A DNA stretch of 64,000 bases from Candidatus Dojkabacteria bacterium (GTDB lineage Bacteria > Patescibacteriota > Dojkabacteria > J137): NCBI GenBank assembly GCA_040006935.1, contig JBDTVZ010000002.1, positions 43,904 through 107,903 of the forward strand, in the 5' to 3' direction. Position numbers and translations under genes: made by a program. The notes under the pieces are model-generated. The model saw only the letters and a program-made list of their open reading frames with translations. It was not told the origin of the DNA and did not search any database. Position 1 is the stretch's first letter, and each line of letters starts with the position of its first letter. Below, in pieces: positions 1-43,773 of the stretch.

Positions 1-27
1 GGGGTCGCTTCGCTCGCAATGACACTT
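1..27. repeat. Partial copy of the TCGCAATGACA-ending palindromic repeat family
   Basis: gtcgcttcgctcgcaatgacac resembles the gattgcttcgtcgct...tcgcaatgaca motifs at 38656-38692 and 42336-42400. The copy is truncated by the window edge. Confidence 0.4.
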
Positions 28-47: not shown

Positions 48-1007
48 ATGTTTCGAGATTTAATCACAGCAAAATTTGTAGCAGGAAAAGGAGGAGACGG
101 TCACGTCTCTTTTGGTGCGGATAAAAAACCAAGTGGTGGAATTGGAGGAAATGGAGGTAATGTTTACCTCGAAGGCTCAATTAACACTTATGACCTGGGA
201 TTTATTAATAGAGACTCAGTATTTAAAGCGGAGAATGGAGAACCCGGAGGACGAAATAATCTAACAGGGAAAAATGGAGATGATTTAATTATCAAAGTTC
301 CGTTAACTACTAAAGTTTACGATGAAGAACATAATCTTCTTTTCACTATTAGCAAACCTGAACAGAGAGAACTATTGTTAGAAGGTGGACTTGGAGGTTT
401 AGGAAATAGATTTTACAAAAAAGCTCACGGAAGAGATTTATATAGATTTCAAACAGGTAAAATTGGACAAGAAGTTGAACCAACTTTAGAACTAGAACTT
501 TTTAGCCACATTATTTTTATTGGATTGCCGAACGCTGGGAAGTCAACTCTTTTGAATGAATTAACTAATGCCGAAGCGAAGATAGGTGCTTATCCTTTTA
601 CTACTCTACTCCCTCAACAAGGAAGAATGAACGAAATTACTTTAATGGATTTACCTGGTTTAATTGAAGGTACAGCAGAAGGTAAGGGAGTTGGAACTAA
701 ATTTGTAAAACATACAAGATCTGCAAGAATCTTAGCACATTTAATTTCTGCAGAATCTGATGATGTTACAAGAGATTATAAAATCATAAGAGGTGAGATT
801 AAAAACATTGGTGATGGATTAGATGAGAAAAAAGAGTTAATTATTCTGACGAAGGTGGATCAAGTGACTGAGGAAGTAAAGAATGAAAAGATTAGAGAAT
901 TAAAGAAGTTGAATAAGGAAGTATTTGCTGCATCTTCTTATGATAATGATTCATTAGAAAAACTAAAAAAAGTTTTTACAGATGAGCTTAAAGAATTCTC
1001 CGAATAA
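48..1007 (+). CDS. obg: GTPase Obg/CgtA
   Basis: Glycine-rich N-terminal Obg fold (GGDGHVSFGADKKPSGGIGGNGGNVYLEG) and G1 motif GLPNAGKSTLLNELT. Confidence 0.9.
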   Translation: MFRDLITAKFVAGKGGDGHVSFGADKKPSGGIGGNGGNVYLEGSINTYDLGFINRDSVFKAENGEPGGRNNLTGKNGDDLIIKVPLTTKVYDEEHNLLFTISKPEQRELLLEGGLGGLGNRFYKKAHGRDLYRFQTGKIGQEVEPTLELELFSHIIFIGLPNAGKSTLLNELTNAEAKIGAYPFTTLLPQQGRMNEITLMDLPGLIEGTAEGKGVGTKFVKHTRSARILAHLISAESDDVTRDYKIIRGEIKNIGDGLDEKKELIILTKVDQVTEEVKNEKIRELKKLNKEVFAASSYDNDSLEKLKKVFTDELKEFSE

Positions 1008-1263
1008 TCCATTTACAGTATATATTCTTCAATGTTCTGACGGGACTTTTTACACTGGTGTTGCAAAAGATTTAGAAAAAAGGCTTGAAGTGCACAAATC
1101 TGGGAAAGGTTCTAAATACGTTCGAGCTAGGCTCCCTTTCAAACTTATTTACTCAAAGGTTTATGCGAATAAAGTTGGAGCAATGCAAGAAGAATATAGA
1201 ATTAAGCAACTTTCAAAATTAGAAAAATTGGAACTAATAAAAAGATCTGTTATCATCTTTTAG
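982..1263 (+). CDS. GIY-YIG nuclease family protein (UPF0213-like)
   Basis: FTVYILQCSDGTFYTGVAKDLEKRLEVHKSGKGSKYVRARLPFKLIY matches the GIY-YIG core. About 90 aa. Overlaps the obg 3' end by 26 nt. Confidence 0.7.
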   Translation: MSLKNSPNNPFTVYILQCSDGTFYTGVAKDLEKRLEVHKSGKGSKYVRARLPFKLIYSKVYANKVGAMQEEYRIKQLSKLEKLELIKRSVIIF

Positions 1264-2472: not shown

Positions 2473-3543
2473 ATGGACTACAGTCAAATACAATCTGTTC
2501 TTGGAGACAAGGCAGAGAATTTATTAAACTACAAATCTCCTACTTTTAAAGATCAGCAATTTTATAAACCAAATGGAAATTGGGTTGATGAAGTTATGGC
2601 TTTTTCTGATAGAAGTCCAAAAGTTTTAGAAAATTTAAAAAGACTTTACGGAGCTGGTAGATTAGCAAATTCTGGATACTTATCTATATTCCCAGTTGAT
2701 CAAGGAATTGAACACTCTGCTGGAGCATCTTTTGCAAAAAATCCAATTTATTTTGATCCTGAAAACATTGTTAAATTAGCTGTAGAAGCTCAAAGTAGTG
2801 GCGTTGCATCTACTTTAGGAGCTTTAGGCTTAGTTAGTAAAAAATATGCAGGCAAGATTCCTTTTATTGTTAAATTAAACCACAACGAACTTTTAACTTA
2901 TCCTAATAAATTTGATGAGGTTATGTTTAGTTCTGTTCAACAAGCTTTTGATATGGGAGCGGCAGGAGTTGGAGCAACAATATATTTTGGATCTGAAGAA
3001 TCTACAAGACAAATTCAAGAAGTTAGCCAAGCTTTTGCAAAAGCTCACGAACTTGGAATGTTCACAATTCTTTGGTGCTACACAAGAAATAGTGCATTTA
3101 AAAAGGATGTGATTGATTACCACACATCTGCAGACTTAACAGGACAAGCAAATCATTTAGGAGTAACAATTGAAGCAGATATTATTAAGCAAAAACTTCC
3201 AACTGTAAATGGTGGATTTAAAGCATTAAATTCTGGAAATTCTAGTTACGGAAAACTTGACGACAGAATGTATAGTGAGCTTTCTACTGATCATCCAATT
3301 GATTTAGCAAAATACCAAGTTGCAAATTGCTACATGGGAAAAATTCCATTAATTAATTCTGGAGGAGCTAGTGGGGATAATGATTTACAAGAAGCAATTG
3401 AAACGGCTGTTATTAATAAAAGAGCTGGTGGAAGTGGATTAATTTTAGGAAGAAAAGCTTTCCAAAAACCATTTGATGAGGGAGTTAAACTATTGAACGC
3501 TGTTCAGGATGTGTATTTATGTAAGGAAGTAGATTTAGCGTGA
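2473..3543 (+). CDS. fbaB: Class I fructose-bisphosphate aldolase (FbaB type)
   Basis: Near-collinear similarity to E. coli FbaB: [68 protein letters not shown]. Confidence 0.9.
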
Positions 3544-4061
3544 GTGAAGAAATAGCAAATTCTGAGTTAACAAATCCCGACGCATTTTTGAATAATAACC
3601 CACCCTTCCCTCCCTTAACAGGGAGGCCTACGGGAATATCGAATAGCCCCCTTGTTAAAGGGGGGCAGGGGGGATTTGTTAAGCCTGAGTATTTTGATAA
3701 ACCAGACTATATTCCATACAGTAAAAGATTGAAACCATTTTCGAGGGCCAACAGAAAATCCATGACACAAGCGGAAAAGAAGATTTGGTACGAAGTTTTA
3801 AGAGATAAAAAATTAGGATATAGATTTGTAAGGCAAAAGCCTATAGGAAAATATATTTTAGATTTCTATAGTTCTAAGTTACAATTGTGTATTGAGATTG
3901 ATGGAAGTACACATATAGGTAAAGAAATTGAGGATAGAGTAAGGGATGAATTTTTGCGAACATTAGGAATTACGACATTGAGATTTTGGAATTCAGAAAT
4001 AAAGAATGATTTAGAAAATATTAAAGAAAGGATTATAAGTTATATTAGTAAGAAATTTTAA
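3540..4061 (+). CDS. DUF559 endonuclease-domain protein; N-terminal ~50 codons are encoded by a palindromic repeat element
   Basis: The C-terminal core [48 protein letters not shown] is typical of DUF559 (Vsr-like fold). The GTG start and N-terminal extension are uncertain. Confidence 0.6.
3601..3688. repeat. Palindromic element (ccctccc-ttaaca-gggagg hairpin plus ccccc-ttgttaaa-gggggg hairpin) encoding ...PPLTGRP...[11 protein letters not shown]
   Basis: Two G/C hairpins seen directly. A related shorter copy is inserted in rarA at 55210-55262 (caccc...gggggNaggggggaNttg). Confidence 0.6.
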
Positions 4062-7938: not shown

Positions 7939-8484
7939 TTATGCTTCTGTTAAAACTGGGAATTCCCTTGTTAAAAAATCTGCAAATGCAAACATATCTA
8001 TAGGTTTTCGAAGTATATTTTCACTTTTTATATTTGTATATTGAGGATCTAAATCATTATATTGTGATGACCATAGTTGGACAATGATGTTGTCCCTTGG
8101 ATTTTGCAATATGATGTTAGCTATCTTATCTCCTTTTATAGTTCTAGTAAAGCAATCGAGGTTTCTATCGAGCATTAATAATACTTTAGTATCATCAGGA
8201 ATACTTCGTACCCATTCTTCAATTAAATCTCCTAAGTATGCTTCGTATTTCTGAACCTGAGCATGGGTTAGAATAATTTTTGCTACATATGGTATTTTAA
8301 AACTGACTGCAAGATCTATAATATTGCTAGTCTCATCGTCTAATACAAATACTACTTGTTTTTTCCCACCAATCATTGCCTCCATCTCCTTAAGAAAATC
8401 AATTTTCAAACTTTCGTAATCAATAGGTACTTCTGGCATAAGTAAGTATAAAAAAAATATTTTAAAGAACTTTAATAGCTTCAC
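7939..8484 (-). CDS. Hypothetical protein (weak receiver-domain-like pattern)
   Basis: ORF with KQVVFVLDDET...VLLMLDRNL pattern. No firm homology. Overlaps the dus start by 23 nt. Confidence 0.3.
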   Translation of the reverse strand: MKLLKFFKIFFLYLLMPEVPIDYESLKIDFLKEMEAMIGGKKQVVFVLDDETSNIIDLAVSFKIPYVAKIILTHAQVQKYEAYLGDLIEEWVRSIPDDTKVLLMLDRNLDCFTRTIKGDKIANIILQNPRDNIIVQLWSSQYNDLDPQYTNIKSENILRKPIDMFAFADFLTREFPVLTEA

Positions 8485-9562
8485 TCAATATCTGTCTCAC
8501 TTCCTCAATTGTCTTTGTTTGCATTAGTTTTGATCTTAATCCAACAGCATTATCGAAATTTGTACAGTACCATCCAAAATGTTTTCTCATCATTACAAAT
8601 GCTCGGGGATCTGGAAATATTTGTATGAACTTTTCTGCATGCTCTAATAGCGTGGCGATTCTATCTTCCTTAGTTTTCATGACCTTACCCTCACCTCTAA
8701 GTTCATTAAATATCCATGGATTTCCATAAGTTGCTCTACCAACCAAGACTCCGTACGCACCTGTTAATTCTAGAATTTTTTCAACATCATCTCTGGATTT
8801 AATATCACCATTAGCAAGAACAGGTTTGGATGTAGACTCAACAGCAATTTTTATTTCATTCCAATCTGCAGCGCCACCATAAAGTTGTTTTAGAGTTCTT
8901 CCATGAACAGTAATCCAATCTGGATTCGCTTTATCAATATTTCCAATCCATTGTTTAGTGACTGGAACATCGTAACCAATTCGTGTTTTTACTGAAACTG
9001 GAATGAGTTCCCGAAACACCTCCCGGTTCTCCGAACCACCCTCCTCAAGGAGGGACTTTCTTTCTCTATTGATCTGACTCTGATTTTTTACGGCATTGTA
9101 ACTTCTTTCTTTTAATCCCGTTAATTCTCCATTCTCTACCCAATGTTTTACTCCTTCTCTAACTGCTGCAATGATTTCCCTTGCTAAATCTGGAGTTCGG
9201 ATTAAACCCGCACCAGATCCGCTATTTGCAACAGTTTTTGCAGGGCATCCCATATTAATATCAACTCCTGTAAAACCAAGTTCGCAAATTATTTTTGCTG
9301 CATGGTAAAAATAATCTGGTTCTTTCCCGAAAATCTGGCCAAAAACAGGCCTTTCACTTTCATCATAAATAAAATGATGTAGAACATTATCTCCAGCCAT
9401 GCACATTCCCATTACATGAGTAAATTCAGTAAAAGTTACATCAGGATTTCCGTATTTTTTTGTAATATATCTAAAAGGCGCATCAGTAATCCCATCCATT
9501 GGGGATAGTCCTATTACTGGTGCTTTTAGATCCTGTATTCTAAACATCTTAATTAATAACAA
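8462..9562 (-). CDS. dus: tRNA-dihydrouridine synthase (DusB-like), carrying an in-frame palindromic insertion
   Basis: GLSPMDGITDAPFR, FGQIFG, GFTGVDINMGCPAK motifs. Insertion peptide KSLLEEGGSENREVF. Confidence 0.85.
   Translation of the reverse strand: MLLIKMFRIQDLKAPVIGLSPMDGITDAPFRYITKKYGNPDVTFTEFTHVMGMCMAGDNVLHHFIYDESERPVFGQIFGKEPDYFYHAAKIICELGFTGVDINMGCPAKTVANSGSGAGLIRTPDLAREIIAAVREGVKHWVENGELTGLKERSYNAVKNQSQINRERKSLLEEGGSENREVFRELIPVSVKTRIGYDVPVTKQWIGNIDKANPDWITVHGRTLKQLYGGAADWNEIKIAVESTSKPVLANGDIKSRDDVEKILELTGAYGVLVGRATYGNPWIFNELRGEGKVMKTKEDRIATLLEHAEKFIQIFPDPRAFVMMRKHFGWYCTNFDNAVGLRSKLMQTKTIEEVRQILSEAIKVL
9015..9057. repeat. Family-A palindromic element inside dus (aacacctcccggttctccgaaccaccctcctcaaggagggact)
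   Basis: Hairpin ccctcc-tcaa-ggaggg. The same element, with an extra nested hairpin, occurs in mnmA at 9723-9787. Confidence 0.7.
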
Positions 9563-9628: not shown

Positions 9629-10783
9629 TCATTTAATAACTCCACCTCCTAAACAAACTTCTCCAGAATAAATAACTAAACTTTGTCCAGATGCTACAGC
9701 TCTGACGGGTTCATCAAATATGAACACCTCCCGGTTCTTCATGCCTGACGGCAGGCAAGCCGGACCACCCTCCTCAAGGAGGGATTTTCTGATTAATTTT
9801 CCTGCTACTGGTTTTTGTCTGTATCTAACACTTGCTTCTAATTTTATTTCTGAGATTTGGTCTCTGAGTTCAGGATTTATCAAATGTAAATTCTCTAATT
9901 CTACTTCCTGAGAATACAATGCTTTGTGATCAGATCCCAAACATACATAGACAATATTTTTCTCAATATCTTTTTTACAAACAAAATATGGAACCACAGT
10001 TCCTCCAATTCCTAAACCATCTCTTTGCCCAATTGTATAAAAGTACACTCCTTTATGTTTTCCTACAACTTTATTCGTATCAATATCTCTAATTTCACCT
10101 TCTTTTACTGGAATTTTACTCATTAAAAATTGTAGAACATTAATCTCTCCTATAAAGCAAATCCCTTGGCTATCAGGTTTTTTAGCGTTTGGAAGTTCAG
10201 CTTCTTCTGCAATCTTTCGAACTTCTGGTTTTTGTAAATGACCTATTGGGAATAAAACTTTATCTAATTGATCGTGAGTTAGATTGTAAAGGAAATAAGT
10301 TTGATCTTTATTCGAATCTTTTCCCTTTAACATAAACGGTCCTTGAGATCCTCTGAGATCTGATGACTGATAACTCATAATTTTCTGTGCATAATGTCCA
10401 GTGGCAATGAAATCTGCACCTTCTGAAATTGCTTTCTCTAAAAATAACTTGAATTTGATTTCTTTGTTACACATCACATCAGGGTTTGGTGTTCTCCCTT
10501 TTTCGTATTCATTAAAAAAATATTCAACAACTTTATCTCTATATTGCTTTTCAAAATTCATGGATCTAAATGGAATTCCAATGTGCTTGCAAACTGCTTC
10601 TGCATCTTTTTGATCTTCTTCCCAGGGGCAATCAGCTTGTATCCCAAATTCATCACCAGACCAATTTTTCATATAAACTCCAGTTACATCGTAACCTTGT
10701 TTCTTTAAAAGATATGCGGAAACGGCAGAATCGACTCCGCCGGAAAGACCTACAAATACTTTTTTACCTTTTATCTGATTCAT
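9629..10783 (-). CDS. mnmA: tRNA-specific 2-thiouridylase MnmA, carrying an in-frame palindromic insertion near the C-terminus
   Basis: KKVFVGLSGGVDSAVSAYLL PP-loop motif. Start trimmed to MNQIKGKK (ATG at 10781-10783) because the longer ORF N-terminus is encoded by a palindromic repeat. Insertion peptide KSLLEEGGPACLPSGMKNREVF. Confidence 0.8.
   Translation of the reverse strand: MNQIKGKKVFVGLSGGVDSAVSAYLLKKQGYDVTGVYMKNWSGDEFGIQADCPWEEDQKDAEAVCKHIGIPFRSMNFEKQYRDKVVEYFFNEYEKGRTPNPDVMCNKEIKFKLFLEKAISEGADFIATGHYAQKIMSYQSSDLRGSQGPFMLKGKDSNKDQTYFLYNLTHDQLDKVLFPIGHLQKPEVRKIAEEAELPNAKKPDSQGICFIGEINVLQFLMSKIPVKEGEIRDIDTNKVVGKHKGVYFYTIGQRDGLGIGGTVVPYFVCKKDIEKNIVYVCLGSDHKALYSQEVELENLHLINPELRDQISEIKLEASVRYRQKPVAGKLIRKSLLEEGGPACLPSGMKNREVFIFDEPVRAVASGQSLVIYSGEVCLGGGVIK
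9723..9787. repeat. Family-A palindromic element inside mnmA with nested gcctgacggcaggc hairpin
   Basis: aacacctcccggttcttcatgcctgacggcaggcaagccggaccaccctcctcaaggagggatt. The ends are shared with the dus copy. The centre carries the GCCTG...CAGGC hairpin family. Confidence 0.7.
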
Positions 10784-10947
10784 TGAATTTTTGAATAGAT
10801 CTTTCGACAAGCTCCATGCTCGCATGCCCAAGGCAGGCAAGCGGGACATGTAAAATTAGATTTCGAAAAACATAGCTCTTCTCAATAAATTTTACCGTTG
10901 ATTATACCATGCAGAAGCAAATTAGAACCGACACAGACTTAGGAGTA

Positions 10948-20698: not shown

Positions 20699-21982
20699 AT
20701 GTACAATCTAAAAAAAGACTTAGATAAATATTCATACTTAAATATCCAAGATATTGAAAACAAAACTATAATTGTTAGATCTTGTCTAAATGTTGCTGTA
20801 GACAAAGAAGGAAGAATGGAAGATTCTACAAGATTTTATGAATCACTTCCGCTAATAAAAGAACTTGCTGAAAAAGCAAAAAAAGTAATTGTAATGGGAC
20901 ATTTGGGAAGACCAGAAAGAAGAGATAAATCGCTAAGTTTTTGGAATATCGCAGAAGTTTTAACAACGGAGTTAGAAGAGCAAAGAGTTGAAGTTGAATT
21001 AGTAGATTCCCTGGGAAAAATAGGTAAGAAAGAGACGCATAATCCAGAGACGCATAATCTTGATACGCATAATCTTGATACGCATAATCTTGAGACGCAT
21101 AATTATGCGTCTGTAAAGGCACAAAGAAAAAAAATAATATTAATCGATAATATCCGATTTTTCCCAGGAGAAGAGAGTAAAAATAAAGATGTTCGAATGG
21201 CATTTGCAAAAGAATTAGCGAGCCTCGCAGATGTTTTTGTTAACGATGCTTTCGCAGATTATCGAGAATCAGCCTCTACTTATGATATTGCAACATTACT
21301 ACCTAGTTATTTAGGCCCAGTATTTATGAAAGAAGTTGCAGCACTTTCGAAATTTTCACAACCAGAAAGCCCATTTGTTGCAGTTTTAGGAGGAGCAAAA
21401 TTGTCAGAAAAATTGGATGCACTCAATGCATTAGTTCAAATTGCAGATAAAGTAATAATCGGAGGAGCCATGGCCTATACGATAATGAAGGCAATCGGAG
21501 TTGAAACTGGAAATTCATTGATTGAAAAAGATAAATTAGAGATTGCTACAGAAATAATGAATAAATATTCTGAGAAGATCCTCTTACCTGTAGACCATTT
21601 GGTTGCGCAAGAATTTAAATTAAAATCCCCTTATGAATACACAGAGACAGAAGTGGTTCCTGCTGATATGGTTGCAATAGACATTGGCTGGAACTCTATC
21701 AGAAAATTCAAAACAGAAATTTCTAATTCAAAATCTATTTTATGGAATGGTCCAATGGGAGTATTTGAGTGGATACATTCTAGCGTTGGAACAAAAGAGA
21801 TTGGAAGTGCAATTGCTGAGAATACTTCAGCATACTCATTAGCAGGAGGAGGAGATTCAATTGCTGCAATAAATAAATTTAATTTAAGAGGTTTTGACCA
21901 TGTATCTACAGGTGGAGGCGCGATGTTAGCATTTTTGGCATATGATAAATTCCCTACTTTAGATGTTATTTTGAATAAATAA
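20699..21982 (+). CDS. pgk: Phosphoglycerate kinase with an in-frame tandem-repeat insertion
   Basis: PGK motifs (RSCLNV, MGHLGRP, GGGAM...). Insertion peptide ETHNPETHNLDTHNLDTHNLETHN. Confidence 0.9.
   Translation: MYNLKKDLDKYSYLNIQDIENKTIIVRSCLNVAVDKEGRMEDSTRFYESLPLIKELAEKAKKVIVMGHLGRPERRDKSLSFWNIAEVLTTELEEQRVEVELVDSLGKIGKKETHNPETHNLDTHNLDTHNLETHNYASVKAQRKKIILIDNIRFFPGEESKNKDVRMAFAKELASLADVFVNDAFADYRESASTYDIATLLPSYLGPVFMKEVAALSKFSQPESPFVAVLGGAKLSEKLDALNALVQIADKVIIGGAMAYTIMKAIGVETGNSLIEKDKLEIATEIMNKYSEKILLPVDHLVAQEFKLKSPYEYTETEVVPADMVAIDIGWNSIRKFKTEISNSKSILWNGPMGVFEWIHSSVGTKEIGSAIAENTSAYSLAGGGDSIAAINKFNLRGFDHVSTGGGAMLAFLAYDKFPTLDVILNK
21033..21109. repeat. 15-bp x ~5 tandem repeat (gaYacgcataatcNNg) ending in palindrome gacgcataattatgcgtc
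   Basis: Direct repeats are visible. In frame (5 aa per unit) inside pgk. Confidence 0.8.
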
Positions 21983-37427: not shown

Positions 37428-37506
37428 AGCACAGACGACGCTCGCCTTCGGCTCGCTCGTTACAAACAGCTACCAAATAGAAACTTTTGTAAATTCCCAT
37501 TTGGTA

Positions 37507-37524
37507 GCCGAAGACACAGATTTC
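37507..37524. repeat. Left 13-bp inverted repeat (gccgaagacacagatttc) of the GC-rich cassette
   Basis: Reverse complement of tctgtgtcttcgg at 38172-38184. Confidence 0.5.
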
Positions 37525-37563
37525 TCCTTTCGATTTTGCTTCGGCATACCCTTTAATCAGTCG

Positions 37564-38097
37564 TTAGGGACAGTTTGCAGGATCTTCGTGCAATCCCTGC
37601 TCGTCCCAATAACGGGGTGAGCATAGAACGTTCCCATCTTCATCGATCAGCCAAGCTTTGCCTTTGACTGAGTTCTCAATTGCGTTCAAGAAACGCTCTC
37701 CGTTTGCGCCACCTGAAACTAACCAAGTCATGTCTCCGCTTACCATTCCGTTGTTAAAGGTGCCATCATGCAGGGCTTGTAAAACGTCCCCTGGAACCTC
37801 ATATTGAGGTGGTCCCGCTGGTGCATCAGGTAAAACTCGCGTGCATGTTTTGGTAAACGTTATGGTGCCGTCTTGAGGGTTGCCCCCAACGGTAGTGCCA
37901 ACGAAAGTTAACCCAGAATCAACGCATACATCCCAATTGGCAGCAACGTAGCCAGCGCATGTGATTGCGCCACTCACACCCGCAACAACGGGTTGTGAAC
38001 AGGAAAATGCCTGAGTCTGTGTGGATGCTGACACTGTAGGCAGAATCGCCAATATCACGATAACAAGTAAGGTCAGAAGCAGTACTTTGAACTTCAT
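37564..38097 (-). CDS. Cys-rich secreted protein on a GC-rich (about 55%) segment
   Basis: Start at MKFKVLLLTLLVIVILAILPTVSAS, with GGAGGA 7 nt upstream. Ten Cys. Composition differs sharply from neighbours. Confidence 0.5.
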   Translation of the reverse strand: MKFKVLLLTLLVIVILAILPTVSASTQTQAFSCSQPVVAGVSGAITCAGYVAANWDVCVDSGLTFVGTTVGGNPQDGTITFTKTCTRVLPDAPAGPPQYEVPGDVLQALHDGTFNNGMVSGDMTWLVSGGANGERFLNAIENSVKGKAWLIDEDGNVLCSPRYWDEQGLHEDPANCP

Positions 38098-38341: not shown

Positions 38342-38460
38342 TTGTGTCATTTCGACTGAGGAGCTTAAGCGACGAATGGAGAAATCTTTACCACTGCCCC
38401 ATAATGTCAGAAGGGTGGTACAGATTTCTCGACTCACTTCGTTCGCTCGAAATGACACAA
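38342..38460. mobile_element. MITE-like element (~119 bp) with TIR TTGTGTCATTTCGA / TCGAAATGACACAA
   Basis: Terminal inverted repeats; internal cgacgaatggagaaatctt and ctcacttcgttcg motifs shared with the 42103-42222 and 41431-41540 copies. Confidence 0.6.
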
Positions 38461-38472
38461 TATTGTAATAGT

Positions 38473-38508
38473 CCCCTCTCCTTTTAAGGAGAGGGTTAGG
38501 GTGAGGTC
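38473..38508. repeat. Hairpin cccctctcc-ttttaa-ggagaggg plus gggtgagg
   Basis: Related to 43362-43429 (ccctctcc...ggagaggg, cctcaccc...gggtgagg). Confidence 0.5.
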
Positions 38509-38655
38509 AAAAAGATAAGACTGCCAAGCAATCGAGTGTCGTAACCCCACAAAATATTAACTGCCCGAAGAGTGTATGAGGTGGGCTAAAGCCAACATAA
38601 ATCTAAAGCTCATAAATTCGCTAAGATTTATAGCTGTATTGTAATAGATTCGAAA

Positions 38656-38692
38656 GAGATTGCTTCGTCGCTTTTAGCGGATCGCAATGACA
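38656..38692. repeat. gagattgcttcgtcgct...tcgcaatgaca element just 3' of the ATPase gene
   Basis: Same ends as 42336-42400, which additionally carries a gcctgcgtacgcagtcaggc insert. Confidence 0.5.
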
Positions 38693-38693
38693 T

Positions 38694-41204
38694 CTAATTT
38701 TTCTTAGGACTATCATCTTTCTTACCTTCCTTTTCTTGAGGATCTTTTGAAGGTTTAGACTCTGGAGTAAACTGACCAGGCTGAATCAAATTTCCCTTAT
38801 TATCGTACTGCTGACTCGCCCACTTATTAATTTTACTTTCAACTTGATCTCGTGGTTTTGAGAATTTCTCTCTAGAAGCTTCTTTAACTTTCTCTTTTAG
38901 ACCTGTGTCTTTGTATTGTGGTTTTAGTGCAATTGCAGTAAATGGAGGTGTTTGAGCTCCGTCTACAGTCATTTTCATTGCGAGTCTGTACTTATCTAAG
39001 TTCACCAAATCTTCAGAGGATAAATATGGAGTGTATTCTTTTTCTAATCTCAAGCCATCTTTTTGTCCGACAACATAGTTCATTAATGTTCCTACATTTC
39101 CAAAAATTGCATCTTGAATTGTTGGGTCTATCTGGTCGATGTATTGATGGGTGACTATTAAATTTAATGCGTATTTTCTAGCTTCTGATAGAATTTTTAC
39201 AAATGAATCTGTAGCAAAATTTTGAAATTCATCAACGTATAGATAGAAATCTTTTCTTTCTTCTTTTGCAATTCGTGCTCTTTGCATTGCATTTGAGTAA
39301 AGCCTTGTTACTATCATTCCTCCTAATAATGAAGAATTTTCTTCTCCAATCTTTCCTTGAGATAAGTTTACTAACAAGATCTTTTCTGAATTCATAATAT
39401 CTTGTAAATCAATCGAAGATTTTATTTGTCCGATCATATTTCTTACCATTGGGGAACTTAGGAATCGACCAACTTTGTTTTGAATTGGAGCAAGAGCTTC
39501 TGCTAGTAATCTTGGATTTTGTCCAAGTTGTTCATATTCTTCCTGCCAGAATTTTAATAAAAATGGATCCTTAACTTGTTTTAATAAAAATTTTCTATAA
39601 TTTTTATCTGTTAGAATCCTTTGGACTGCAAGTAGGGAAACATTTTGGCAGTGTAATAAAGTCAAAACTGCATTTGCAAGTATATATTGTAATCTTGGTC
39701 CCCAGGAATCTCCAAAGTATTTTTTAAACACATTTACAATTCCGTCTGCAAGTAAATCGATAGTTTCTTCTGGATGAATATCCAACATGTTTAATCCGAT
39801 TGGGTTTTCAATATCAGATGGATCTAAGTAAATAATATCTTTAATTCTATTTTCTGGAATTAATTCCAAAACTTCCTCTACTAATTCTCCGTGAGGATCC
39901 AACACCGCTAACCCTTTCCCATCAATAATATCTCCAACTATCATGTTTTTCATGAATGTAGATTTACCTGTTCCAGTTTTACCGAGAAGGTACATATGTC
40001 TTCTTCGATCTTCATCTTTTATTCCGAAAGGAATGTGAATATTCCTGTAATCTGTAAGTCCAATTAGACGCATTCCTTTTGGTGGGATATTATCGGCTAA
40101 TTCTTGTTCAGAGATTAATGGGAGATTTAATGGGAATTCTAATTTTTTAGATTTTGCCCATGCAATATTTGGAGTTTTTACGGATTCATTTGGTAAATGA
40201 AAAATAGAAGCAAGCTCCTCGATATTTAGAATGTCTGTTTCTCGCTCATCCAAATATCGAGTTTCGTATTTTTGAGGGAAATTTAAATTATCTCCCAATC
40301 GTGTTCCCTGAATGGCTTTACTGACAGATTTATTAAATTTTTTATTTAATTCGCCAACAAAAGTTTTCTTTTTATCTTTGGGTTTTATTAAGCTATTTAA
40401 TTGGGCTGTTTGGAATTGCTTGAAAGATGCTTCTATATCTTGAATTAAAGTTTTTAAGGACGAAGGCTCTGGCCCTTGAACTAAAATCCTAATTTTAAAT
40501 TGAAATCCTACTTTATTATTTTTCTTTTCAATTTCTGAAAATTCTGCAGTTTTGCCTTCTTCTAATTGGATTTTATTTCCTTCAGCATCTTTTTTATTTC
40601 GATTTGTATCTATATATTTTTTACCAATTTGCTGCCAAGAATTATCTATTGGACGTGCTAGTAATTGAATAAATACTTCGTTACCTTGGTTTAATTTTGA
40701 AACTGACGAAGTTATAGATGCTAACGGGTCCACTTCAAAACTTTGAAACGTTTTTATAGGTAAGAAAAATTCTTTAGAAAGTTTTAGTTCTATTCCTATT
40801 CTATGAACATTCTTTTTTATGCCAACTTCCGCATAATCGTGAACAGTTTCTATCTGTGCTTCTGGATATTGTGCATAGATTTGATTTTCTATAAAAGTTT
40901 TATATCTCTTATTACAAACTACTATAAAAAATATTCCAATTGGATTTGCATAAATTTCAAAACTGAAGTGATCCTTAGATTTTACCTCTCCTTGAATTAC
41001 TCCATGCAATGCTTGGAAGAACTGCTCTGCAGATGCAGGCTTTTTATCGTTCTTAACTGGAACAGAAATTTTTAAAATTGTTTGGTCTAAAATAGCTTCA
41101 CTGACTTTTGTGCGAAGATTTAAGTATCTTAAAATTATTAAATAAGAGACAGTAAATATTGCAGCAAGAAAAATTGAAAGTTGTATTATAAAATCGAAGT
41201 CCAC
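38694..41204 (-). CDS. VirB4/VirD4(TraG)-like FtsK-HerA-superfamily P-loop ATPase with N-terminal TM and disordered Lys/Glu-rich C-terminus
   Basis: Walker A LGKTGTGKST, downstream LDPHGEL, Walker B FYLYVDEFQNF. Type IV secretion or competence-type ATPase. Confidence 0.5.
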   Translation of the reverse strand: MDFDFIIQLSIFLAAIFTVSYLIILRYLNLRTKVSEAILDQTILKISVPVKNDKKPASAEQFFQALHGVIQGEVKSKDHFSFEIYANPIGIFFIVVCNKRYKTFIENQIYAQYPEAQIETVHDYAEVGIKKNVHRIGIELKLSKEFFLPIKTFQSFEVDPLASITSSVSKLNQGNEVFIQLLARPIDNSWQQIGKKYIDTNRNKKDAEGNKIQLEEGKTAEFSEIEKKNNKVGFQFKIRILVQGPEPSSLKTLIQDIEASFKQFQTAQLNSLIKPKDKKKTFVGELNKKFNKSVSKAIQGTRLGDNLNFPQKYETRYLDERETDILNIEELASIFHLPNESVKTPNIAWAKSKKLEFPLNLPLISEQELADNIPPKGMRLIGLTDYRNIHIPFGIKDEDRRRHMYLLGKTGTGKSTFMKNMIVGDIIDGKGLAVLDPHGELVEEVLELIPENRIKDIIYLDPSDIENPIGLNMLDIHPEETIDLLADGIVNVFKKYFGDSWGPRLQYILANAVLTLLHCQNVSLLAVQRILTDKNYRKFLLKQVKDPFLLKFWQEEYEQLGQNPRLLAEALAPIQNKVGRFLSSPMVRNMIGQIKSSIDLQDIMNSEKILLVNLSQGKIGEENSSLLGGMIVTRLYSNAMQRARIAKEERKDFYLYVDEFQNFATDSFVKILSEARKYALNLIVTHQYIDQIDPTIQDAIFGNVGTLMNYVVGQKDGLRLEKEYTPYLSSEDLVNLDKYRLAMKMTVDGAQTPPFTAIALKPQYKDTGLKEKVKEASREKFSKPRDQVESKINKWASQQYDNKGNLIQPGQFTPESKPSKDPQEKEGKKDDSPKKN

Positions 41205-41430: not shown

Positions 41431-41540
41431 TTGTGTCATCTCGAGCGAAGTCGAGAGATCTCAACCAGCTTCCTGACATGATACGACAAGTGGTTAAGAT
41501 TTCCCTTGCCTGACGGTAGGCAGGTCAGTCGAAATGACAT
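41431..41540. mobile_element. MITE-like element, inverted orientation (TIR ttgtgtcatctcgag ... gtcgaaatgacat)
   Basis: Start matches the reverse complement of the 42190-42222 end. Contains gcctgacggtaggc hairpin. Confidence 0.55.
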
Positions 41541-41546
41541 TAATCA

Positions 41547-42102: not shown

Positions 42103-42222
42103 TTGTGTCATTTCGACTGACCTGCCTGACTGCGTACGCAGGCACGGGGAGTGTAACGACGAATGGAGACATCTTCGACCACGGAGGTTAAAGATCTCTC
42201 GACTTCGCTCGAGATGACACAA
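42103..42222. mobile_element. MITE-like element with TIR TTGTGTCATTTCGA...TCGAGATGACACAA and nested cctgcctgactgcgtacgcaggca hairpin
   Basis: Collinear with 38342-38460 apart from the inserted hairpin module. Confidence 0.6.
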
Positions 42223-42335
42223 AGAAACTAAATAGGCTGTAACACAGCCTGACCAAAATGTTGAATTTACACAAAACACAGGCTTTTATTAGTGGGAGGA
42301 TAAGCTTAAGTGGAAGTGGAAGGCTTTCTTTAGAG

Positions 42336-42400
42336 TGAGATTGCTTCGTCGCTGTGCTCCCCATGCCTGCGTACGCAGTCAGGCAGGTCGCAATGACAAC
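42336..42400. repeat. gagattgcttcgtcgct-[gcctgcgtacgcagtcaggc hairpin]-gtcgcaatgaca element
   Basis: Inverted copy of the hairpin module at 42118-42148. Just 3' of the uvrB fragment. Confidence 0.55.
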
Positions 42401-42450: not shown

Positions 42451-43344
42451 TTACTTTTCAAGGTCGTCCACGATATCCCTCAACTCCGCGGCTTTTTCGA
42501 ATTCAAGCATATCCGCAAAAATTTGCATTTGCATTTTTAATTCCTTAACAAACTTCCCTCGTTCCTTTTTTGGCATTGCTTTATAGCTTTCCGCAAGTTT
42601 TAACAAATCCTTTCCTTTCACATCTTTTTCCTCTTCCTTTGCAAATTTATTTAGTTGGTCCGTAATTGCTTTTTTAATAGTTGTTGGAGTAATTCCATGT
42701 TCAGTATTATATTTTTCCTGAACTGCTCTTCGTCTTCTAGTTTCAGATATTGCTGCATACATCGAATCCGTAATTTTATCCGCGTACATTAACACTCGGC
42801 CTTCGGAATGCCTTGCTGCTCTACCAATTGTTTGAATCAAGCTCGTTTGTGACCGTAAAAAACCTTCTTTATCCGCATCTAGTATTGCGACTAACGAAAC
42901 TTCTGGCAAATCTAAACCTTCTCTTAGTAAATTAATTCCAACCAAGACATCGTATTCTCCAAGTCTTAAACTCTTTAAAATCTGAACTCTTTCGATTGTA
43001 TCGATATCGGAATGAATATATTTACTTTTTACATTTCGTTCGACTAAGAAATCCGAAAGCTCTTCCGACATTCTTTTTGTTAAAGTTGTTACTAAAACTC
43101 TTTGGCCTTTTTTAATAGTTTTATCTATTTCTAGCATTAAATCCTGAACCTGTGTTCGTTCCCAGTAAGCTTCTGCCAGAATTGGCATATCTTTCAATCC
43201 ACGATCTTCTAAACTTTTTTTAAGTTGTAAAAAAGCATCTGGTAAAGTTGGACGAACTTCAATATTAGGATCTAATAACCCTGTAGGACGGATAATTTGG
43301 TAAACAATACCTTCGTAATTTTCTGGAAGTTTAAATTTGGACAT
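42451..43344 (-). pseudogene. uvrB: uvrB 3' fragment (C-terminal ~300 aa of excinuclease ABC subunit B only)
   Basis: The ORF begins at [20 protein letters not shown], matching the UvrB segment that starts roughly 400 residues into full-length UvrB (position from memory). It runs through helicase motifs V/VI (TIGRAARH) to the C-terminal UvrB/UvrC coiled-coil. The N-terminal half is absent and replaced by repeats. Confidence 0.6.
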
Positions 43345-43749: not shown

Positions 43750-43773
43750 CCTGCCTGACTGCGCACGCAGGCA
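43750..43773. repeat. cctgcctgactgcgcacgcaggca hairpin module
   Basis: Same module as 42118-42148 and 42361-42388. Confidence 0.55.

Follow-up and report, generated by a model that had tools for sequence, protein, structure and literature searches.

Inverted hairpin pairs in a Dojkabacteria genome as a probable divergent subtype of CGTC-REP and Ssn-related-motif hairpins

What kind of repeat is represented by three short, gene-less elements with inverted ends that lie close together in the chromosome of Candidatus Dojkabacteria bacterium? We analysed the 64,000-nucleotide stretch that holds them (contig JBDTVZ010000002.1, positions 43,904 to 107,903), henceforth the window, in which the original prediction had recognised a family resembling MITEs (miniature transposable elements bounded by inverted repeats). 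We found a different organization: the elements are very probably gene-less, tags-outward pairs, accompanied by singletons, of a divergent subtype of the hairpins described as CGTC repetitive extragenic palindromes (CGTC REPs) and as Ssn-related motifs (SRMs). The unit, which we call an arm, consists of a YGTC tag, the pentamer ATTNC, a loop, the pentamer GN'AAT and then a C, so written with the tag first; its stem comprises five Watson-Crick pairs and a possible GA/GA, its loop has about 7-45 nt, and the span between the 5-nt stem halves (GA...GA included) is mostly 10-24 nt and reaches about 60 nt. The window holds nine arms, namely three pairs and three singletons, laid out as follows.

1..24, plus strand: 3' part of a single arm (..GGGGTCGCTTCGCTCGCAATGACA), truncated by the window start, upstream of obg.
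38342..38460, plus strand: copy 1, an inverted arm pair with tags outward; left arm with TGTC 38345-38348, ATTTC 38349-38353 and GAAAT-C 38381-38386; variable central hairpin ACCAC/GTGGT; right arm with ATTTC 38424-38428, GAAAT 38449-38453 and GACA 38454-38457.
38659..38692, plus strand: single arm of the G-variant, ATTGC...GCAAT-GACA, tag at its right end.
41431..41542, minus strand: copy 2, oriented opposite to copies 1 and 3; short-loop arm with TGTC 41434-41437 and ATCTC/GAGAT 41438-41459; long-loop arm with ATTTC 41499-41503 and GAAAT-GACA 41531-41539, whose loop holds a hairpin module at 41507-41522.
42103..42222, plus strand: copy 3, an arm pair; left arm 42106-42173, with a hairpin module at 42123-42144 in its loop and an inner stem GACAT with one mismatch; right arm 42194-42219, an ATCTC/GAGAT variant.
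42340..42397, plus strand: single arm of the G-variant, ATTGC...GCAAT-GAC, with a hairpin module at 42364-42385 in its loop.

The three copies lie where they had been placed, save that copy 2 ends at 41542 and not at 41540; the single arms at 38659-38692, 42340-42397 and 1-24 and the modules at 42364-42385, 43752-43773 and 9742-9757 were absent from the original prediction. The inverted ends and internal motifs that it took to be shared were borne out by alignment and a shuffle test. The ends common to the three copies read TTGTGTCAT.TCGA, and when the three copies are aligned, conservation is seen at the left ends (GTCATTTCGACTGA), at the right ends (TTCGCTCGARATGACACAA) and in the inner motifs (GAGAAATCT...AGATYTCTCGAC), while the centers between them vary in sequence and keep their self-complementarity. 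At two or fewer mismatches, TTGTGTCATTTCGA matches the window eight times against 0.74 expected, a number reached by none of 100 shuffles, and six of the eight matches are ends of the three copies; a strict arm definition recovers seven arms in the window versus 0.76 in shuffles. All three single arms end in GTCATTGCGA, and for the one cut off by the window start a related locus (L120; the L-numbers denote comparison loci from other genomes) shows the upstream continuation, with the hairpin module present there. Every copy folds to one long hairpin (z-scores -2.4 to -5.9), and the elements have a G+C content of about 48% versus 33% for the genome. Copies 2 and 3 are 100% identical over their outer 31 nt, suggestive of a recent copying or conversion event in that arm, and the left arm of copy 3 is complementary, at 89%, to a 45-nt stretch of the arm at 42340-42397.

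The nature of the inverted ends emerges from covariation. Eight compensated stems are found (ATTTC/GAAAT, ATTCC/GGAAT, ATTGC/GCAAT, ATCTC/GAGAT, ATCCC/GGGAT, ATCGC/GCGAT, ACCTC/GAGGT and ACCCC/GGGGT). Perfect complementarity of the outer pentamer to the inner one is seen in 135 of 184 distinct arms; the figure for 1000 shuffles is 62 (maximum 80). When arms are picked by context only, 99.4% of the cells are paired versus 91.4% in shuffles, and three of the five pairs show compensatory changes, a result matched by 0 of 500 shuffles. Among 63 tags-outward (head-to-head, HH) dimers there are 17 heterodimers, in which pairing holds within the arm in 15/17 and 14/17 cases, as against an inner-to-inner match between the arms in 2/17; copy 2 is itself such a heterodimer, joining an ATCTC/GAGAT arm to an ATTTC/GAAAT arm. 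Because the stems co-vary within an arm and not between arms, these are two separate stem-loops and not one element bounded by terminal inverted repeats (TIRs): the apparent TIRs are the outer halves of two independent stem-loops.

Hairpins of comparable build were gathered by Di Nocera et al. 2013 (PMC3733652) into a REP superfamily spanning five phyla, with a CGTC (often TGTC) tag that stays unpaired, a stem of 8-9 bp starting with A-T, a loop of 4-5 nt and a short tail (consensus CCA). Its members, which include dRS3/NIME of Neisseria and RPE-4/RPE-6 of Rickettsia, form mostly tags-outward (HH) dimers, often heterodimers, with structured spacers of 20-100 nt; they lie downstream of ORFs and have no associated transposase and no flanking tyrosine transposase gene (PMC3733652). 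The window arms share the TGTC tag, the A-T stem start, a C-initial tail, HH dimers and heterodimers, the position after ORFs and the lack of a transposase, but their tail reads CTN rather than the consensus CCA (CCAG is seen in canonical arms of L132 and L140), and the Patescibacteria lie outside the five phyla of PMC3733652.

The same kind of hairpin has been linked to a nuclease by Chenal et al. 2025 (PMC11893778), for whom NTS (CGTCATTCCCGCGMAVGCGGGAATCYRG) is the oriented form of dRS3. It is bound as single-stranded DNA (ssDNA), and on just one of the two strands, by the single-domain GIY-YIG nuclease SsnA (94 aa), whose cut falls a few bases upstream of the motif; cutting depends critically on the GTC that precedes the palindrome and binding on the C that follows it, and the loop is dispensable and can carry extensions (PMC11893778). 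SRMs are found near 71% of the ssnA homologues and on both sides of 42%, the arrangement NTS-ssnA-NTS resembles an insertion sequence (IS), and in N. meningitidis the Ssn system lowers the integration of transforming DNA (PMC11893778). The window arms retain HGTC (as TGTC) on the 5' side, the A-T start of the palindrome and the 3' C, and accept insertions only in their loops. TGTC stands directly 5' of the palindrome in all of them (from ATGACAT in the long arm of copy 2), and a C stands directly 3' of the stem in every one (GAAAT-C, GCAAT-C or GAGAT-C), as it also does in unselected partner arms of other genomes. Like the SRM/NTS repeats, they occur in many copies, are mostly intergenic and often cluster near particular genes; they depart from them in having a 5-bp stem (ATTNC/GN'AAT) plus GA/GA rather than the 8-9 bp of ATTCCCGC, and loops of 7-45 nt rather than about 3-5.

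The subtype extends well beyond this genome. We scanned the left-end 14-mer against one genome per species, a collection in which an estimated 4,400 or so chance 14-mer matches are expected; among the 130 matches retrieved, at least 51 are full pairs that have an inverted partner end 60-200 nt away and share the inner motifs GGAGAAATC...GATTTCTC, and many of the remainder are clear single arms. Arms are found in at least ten phyla (Bacteroidota, Planctomycetota, Chloroflexota, Actinomycetota, Bacillota, Spirochaetota, Patescibacteria, Nitrospirota, Desulfobacterota, Pseudomonadota and others), with hosts that include Flavobacterium, Pedobacter, Mucilaginibacter, Bacteroidales, Thermoguttaceae, Anaerolineales, Coriobacteriia, Clostridia, Treponema, Moraniibacteriota, Nitrospiraceae, Desulfobacteraceae and metagenome-assembled genomes (MAGs) of Pseudomonadota. 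Judging by the number of arm-bearing loci recovered from them, the subtype appears to be common in Bacteroidota, and Bacteroidales MAGs match a 36-nt stretch of copy 1 at 94% identity. In relatives from the Candidate Phyla Radiation (CPR) arms occur in 3 of 80 loci, always as tags-outward pairs, one of which has a canonical NTS-like arm (L132). Phages as major carriers were rejected, only 2 of 120 14-mer matches on viral contigs being real elements. The original description of a dispersed, modular, gene-less family bounded by inverted ends is thus upheld, with arms also at the window start and in other genomes.

In the Flavobacteriaceae the arms enclose a gene. Among the loci selected by their arms, 5/5 GIY-YIG genes with a REKELKKW-type C-terminus adjoin arms (L011, L030, L059, L069, L111), and two arm-adjacent genes are confirmed as PF01541 by Pfam (E=2e-17 and 3e-16). 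L059 presents a minimal unit of 390 bp, with left arm, 100-aa gene and right arm, tags outward, whereas L030 has a full pair followed by the gene and then by a repeat of the half-spacer and right arm. As a control for selection bias we retrieved four loci by protein homology to L059 alone; arms flank the gene on both sides in 4/4, in four unrelated neighborhoods. Altogether, a single-domain GIY-YIG gene of about 100 aa is accompanied by arms at 9/9 Flavobacteriaceae loci (five arm-selected and four protein-selected), so that the IS-like flanking of a gene of about 94-100 aa, known for SRM/NTS, is seen at these loci for the window subtype as well. Since the same arms enclose this gene in Flavobacteriaceae, the 110-120-bp pairs of the window are the gene-less form of the arm-gene-arm arrangement. 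In Urechidicola croceus (L327, 100-2350) the GIY-YIG gene is surrounded by at least 13 arm pairs in tandem, repeating every 147 nt, and in Aliifodinibius (L073, 3570-4430) arms recur at a 284-287-nt period; both loci show local amplification of repeat units.

The behavior of individual sites was compared in relatives with 77-84% identity in the ATPase encoded between copies 1 and 2, drawn from the protein database; JGI metagenome relatives of the ATPase, considered as a source of empty sites, were dropped as too distant (the closest is 50% identical). Upstream of the ATPase gene L203 reads GTCATAAA, TACTAGTTAAGTGAGAGATCCCTCGACTGCGCTCGGGATG and ACAAAGACTTCC in succession, and the otherwise near-identical L205 joins GTCATAAA directly to ACAAAGACTTCC. 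One arm with its tail, 40 nt in all, is cleanly present in the former and absent from the latter, with no duplication and no microhomology, and the junction on the tag-first strand falls between TGT and C; the sequence argues for an enzymatic, duplication-free event on a single arm. Relatives carry an arm at only one of the element sites of the window.

From these lines of evidence we consider Ssn-type hairpin pairs to be probably the best overall explanation of the window elements. Each element, on this reading, is a head-to-head pair of ssDNA stem-loops, tags outward, with a variable self-complementary spacer between them. The hairpin, according to the literature, would be bound as ssDNA by a GIY-YIG nuclease of about 94-100 aa and cut a few bases upstream, and we infer that the window subtype may be recognized by an enzyme of this type. 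New copies would arise via single-strand insertion without duplication, and those in the window genome would mostly be old passengers at the 3' ends of genes and at gene-loss junctions. That an Ssn-type nuclease acts on the window copies themselves has about an even chance of being true. We are more doubtful of a further possibility, namely that the arm-gene-arm units (390-530 bp) and the gene-less pairs are distinct, tiny selfish elements mobilized by the one protein they encode, the roughly 100-aa GIY-YIG ssDNA nuclease. Such elements could, on this tentative proposal, insert by a duplication-free single-strand route like IS200/IS605 with an unrelated catalytic fold, and their horizontal spread to at least ten phyla, including ultra-small CPR genomes, is part of the same rather speculative suggestion.

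Several observations weigh against the Ssn-type reading, some of them involving the only GIY-YIG gene of the window.

982..1263, plus strand: single-domain GIY-YIG nuclease gene of the UPF0213 type, 93 aa, overlapping the end of obg.

This gene is not flanked by arms, the nearest of which is about 960 nt away, and its UPF0213 subtype is unlike the arm-flanked Flavobacteriaceae type: its product matches PDB 1zg2 with E=1e-19, versus E=0.004 for the Flavobacterium type. It is possibly a candidate cognate nuclease of the window arms, no more. An Ssn-type gene is found neither in the 64-kb window nor in the 80 loci (792 kb) from CPR relatives, and the arm-flanked Flavobacterium genes are putative members of the cd10448 family. 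The published SRM pattern, HGTCWYN(0-2)YYVSBRHN(0-5)WNVSBRGN(0-2)RNCYNB, has 0 matches in the window and fits 8 of the 238 arms from all loci, all eight of the canonical ATTCCCGC type, and the stem and loop lengths (5 bp + GA/GA; about 7-45 nt) fall outside the definitions of the CGTC-REP families. Recognition of ssDNA and the effect on natural transformation were shown for Neisseria and Wolbachia homologues with the canonical motif only (PMC11893778). The boundary of the L203/L205 indel (T/C of TGTC) differs from the cut position of the Neisseria enzyme, and this single indel fits insertion or deletion alike. Moreover, an 83%-identical relative (L201) carries a decayed arm at the position of the one upstream of obg, and at least some copies are therefore ancient, vertically inherited and inactive. 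As an aside, the pairing of obg with the GIY-YIG gene is kept in L120 and L201.

Other explanations fare worse. A classical MITE would be a deletion derivative of an IS, moved by a DDE transposase that acts on double-stranded TIRs by cut-and-paste with target-site duplications (TSDs), and the window elements do resemble one in their length of 110-120 bp, inverted ends of at least 14 nt, several intergenic copies and G+C above that of the host; bacterial MITEs (e.g., Correia, Nezha) are likewise short, gene-less, multicopy and intergenic with inverted ends. Yet the TSDs that this predicts are lacking at copies 1-3 and at the L203/L205 indel, single arms are common, and the two ends of one element may differ, each being complementary to the inner motif of its own arm. 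No transposase of any kind and no PF01797 match turned up in Pfam scans covering about 45 ORFs of the window, and the gene between such ends elsewhere is the 100-aa GIY-YIG nuclease and no known IS-family transposase. The arms lack an IS-type parent, and their motifs are shared across phyla; in a census of bacterial MITEs the clusters were 97% genus-specific at 95% identity (PMC11602168). With covariation at the level of the arm added to these points, we regard the MITE interpretation as very unlikely. The accompanying idea of a non-autonomous element with a protein partner survives in part, for a partner exists elsewhere, but it is a GIY-YIG nuclease and not a transposase. We give hardly any credence to a local segmental duplication, by which the copies would be pieces of one duplicated stretch: all full copies do lie within 4 kb, and both the 31 nt shared by copies 2 and 3 and the 45 nt shared at 89% by copy 3 and its neighboring single arm could be so explained, but the flanks are unrelated, a further arm stands 38 kb away at the window start, and the family recurs in many phyla, with relatives having an arm at only one site. 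The condition under which the original prediction would have failed, a motif confined to this place or one duplicated segment, is countered by the same unrelated flanks and the occurrences at the window start and in many genomes.

A further alternative is that the elements are REPINs, pairs of REP hairpins mobilized in trans by a Y1 HUH transposase (RAYT) via single-strand intermediates. The REPIN/RAYT systems (Bertels & Rainey 2011; Nunvar 2010) are likewise gene-less inverted doublets in one long hairpin, with singletons and no TSD, and the inverted doublets, singleton remnants, absence of TSDs, hairpin covariation and clean indel described here all fit a single-strand mechanism; the Y1 subclasses 2.4, 2.6 and 3 have a similar taxonomic spread (PMC6006769), and a CPR relative (L178) has a RAYT-like gene flanked by hairpins. 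These systems are defined by a GTAG tag and a Y1 HUH transposase, and neither is seen in the window, where the tag is TGTC/CGTC and no Y1_Tnp gene is present; nor do CGTC REPs flank tyrosine transposase genes (PMC3733652), and at 9/9 loci what the arms enclose is a GIY-YIG gene. A scan for the HUH/Y motif pointed to L178 only, and there the flanking hairpins (AACAAAGG..CCTTTGTT) are unrelated to the arms. We consequently hold REPINs to be improbable. The L178 unit itself, a RAYT-like HUH/Y1 gene at 9700-10460 of a CPR metagenome contig with AACAAAGG-N4-CCTTTGTT hairpins on both sides, is by its sequence REPtron-like in Patescibacteria, and unrelated to the window arms. It is similarly improbable that the elements are kept for their fold at the RNA level, as 3'-UTR stabilizers, terminators or small RNAs, with DNA repetition secondary. 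Strong predicted folds speak for such a role, as does the location of arms 2-4 nt and 53 nt beyond the stops of co-directional genes, a kind of placement reported for REPs generally. Against it, no Rfam family is matched at gathering thresholds or at E<=10 (window and 18 loci); arms lack following T-runs and are not called terminators, whereas a neighboring small hairpin is; the sequence, and not the fold alone, is conserved across phyla; pairs are symmetric on both strands; and SsnA of Neisseria does not bind the RNA form of NTS (PMC11893778). A secondary RNA effect on the upstream mRNAs is possible. A hammerhead or other ribozyme reading of the GUC/CUGA/GAAA motifs was rejected, with no stem I on inspection and no Rfam match, and a literature search with the raw element sequence strings returned primers only.

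The elements retained here as Ssn-type hairpin pairs sit in an ordinary small-genome chromosome: the Pfam scan assigns glycolysis genes, Obg, MnmA, Dus, signal peptidase, a class II tRNA synthetase (tRNA-synt_2; Asp/Lys/Asn type) and the TrwB/HerA-like ATPase. The elements are all found in gaps between minus-strand genes that are co-directional. A distance of 2-3 nt separates the arm at 38659-38692 from the stop codon of the ATPase gene (38694-41204, minus strand), and one of 4 nt separates the end of copy 2 from the ORF153 stop; the arm at 42340-42397 is 53 nt downstream of the stop of a UvrB-C-terminal-like gene. Related genomes hold genes between the UvrB-like gene and ORF153, and also after the ATPase gene, that the window lacks, and the elements occupy these junctions. 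ORF153, between copies 2 and 3, was rejected as cargo or transposase, as it encodes a small membrane protein with homologues in relatives that have no flanking elements. The copies were said to bracket the ATPase gene and a uvrB fragment; the former does lie between copies 1 and 2, but the UvrB-like gene is bordered by copy 3 plus a single arm at one end and by nothing more than a bare module at the other. Nor is it a fragment left by the elements: a stand-alone UvrB C-terminal half of 297-298 aa, with Helicase_C, UvrB and UVR motifs, is encoded at 42451-43344 and in relatives (L204 2645-3541; L203 1-384), which on sequence grounds is a conserved gene of its own in related Dojkabacteria and not a pseudogene.

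Further observations concern the neighborhood of copy 1. A small secreted-protein gene on the minus strand (37564-38097), with about 50% G+C versus 33% for the genome and no family match, takes the place of the unrelated-looking ORF167 of relatives, and from that position it was likely replaced or acquired; minus-strand downstream of it a decayed arm-like repeat (..AGATTTCTCCTTTCGA..) is apparent at 37430-37545 (plus coordinates). Between copy 1 and the next single arm (38461-38647), a 165-nt segment lies between exact 11-nt direct repeats TATTGTAATAG (38461-38471 and 38637-38647) and begins with a hairpin motif of 36 nt, CCCCTCTCCTTTTAAGGAGAGGGTTAGGGTGAGGTC (38474-38509), of which a relative with approximately 83%-identical proteins has a 100% identical copy at another locus (L201 4192-4227). 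Elsewhere in the window, a repeated small hairpin, AGGCTGTAACAC(A/G)GCCT, occurs at 1296-1325 and 42228-42257 (87% over 30 nt), the latter copy being called terminator-like on the minus strand. Within the phosphoglycerate kinase ORF (20699-21982) lies, at 21032-21106, a tandem repeat of about 5 units of 15 nt (GAGACGCATAATCTT and variants), and two small nuclease genes, 3540-4061 (DUF559/Vsr-like) and 982-1263 (the UPF0213 GIY-YIG), overlap the ends of housekeeping genes, DeoC-like and obg, respectively.

The hairpin module that distinguishes the copies, as had been recognized, is long in copy 3 (CCTGCCTGACTGCGTACGCAGGCA, 42123-42144), short in copy 2 (TGCCTGACGGTAGGCA, 41507-41522) and absent from copy 1. 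In the form TGCCTGAC-N(2-8)-AGGCA, 16-22 nt in length, it has five copies in the window and 0 in 100 shuffles.

9742-9757: module copy within the MnmA gene.
41507-41522: module copy in the long-loop arm of copy 2.
42123-42144: module copy in the left arm of copy 3.
42364-42385: module copy in the single arm 42340-42397.
43752..43773, plus strand: free-standing module, TGCCTGAC-N8-AGGCA, outside any arm.
L120, about 200-222: module copy in a relative.

The module nests cleanly in the loops of three arms and forms a 21-nt insertion in the MnmA copy of an intragenic repeat (9742-9757), and by its distribution it seems to act like a very small mobile repeat of its own. Elhai et al. in 2008 reportedly described small dispersed repeats nested inside other repeats in Nostoc. 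The window module TGCCTGAC..AGGCA likewise inserts cleanly in other repeats and also stands alone, whereas its sequence and host differ from those of Nostoc, the likeness being one of behavior. The intragenic repeat is a second, GC-rich palindromic repeat (..CCGRACCACCCTCCTCAAGGAGGGAYTTTC..) found in frame within two minus-strand housekeeping genes, at about 9015-9065 in the Dus ORF (8462-9562) and about 9722-9795 in the MnmA ORF (9629-10849), where it adds RKSLLEEGG(S/P)..NREVF at gaps of the Pfam domain matches; in sequence these look like insertions of the Rickettsia RPE kind in a CPR genome.

The kind of hairpin described here is thus known; what is new is a subtype that neither published definition captures, its breadth across phyla, its occurrence in a CPR genome with no Ssn gene visible in the window, the minimal arm-gene-arm unit and the single-arm indel. 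Recognizing the subtype widens the set of candidate hairpin/nuclease pairs for ssDNA tools and accounts for many spurious short ORFs and "MITE" calls in annotation, and the 390-bp unit and the single-arm indel bear on how repeats multiply without a transposase. Several nested families of small hairpins can thus be present in a reduced CPR genome, some of them translated in frame within housekeeping enzymes. If the arms and their nuclease genes should prove to be selfish elements, they would mark junctions of gene loss in CPR genomes and possibly modulate the uptake of ssDNA.

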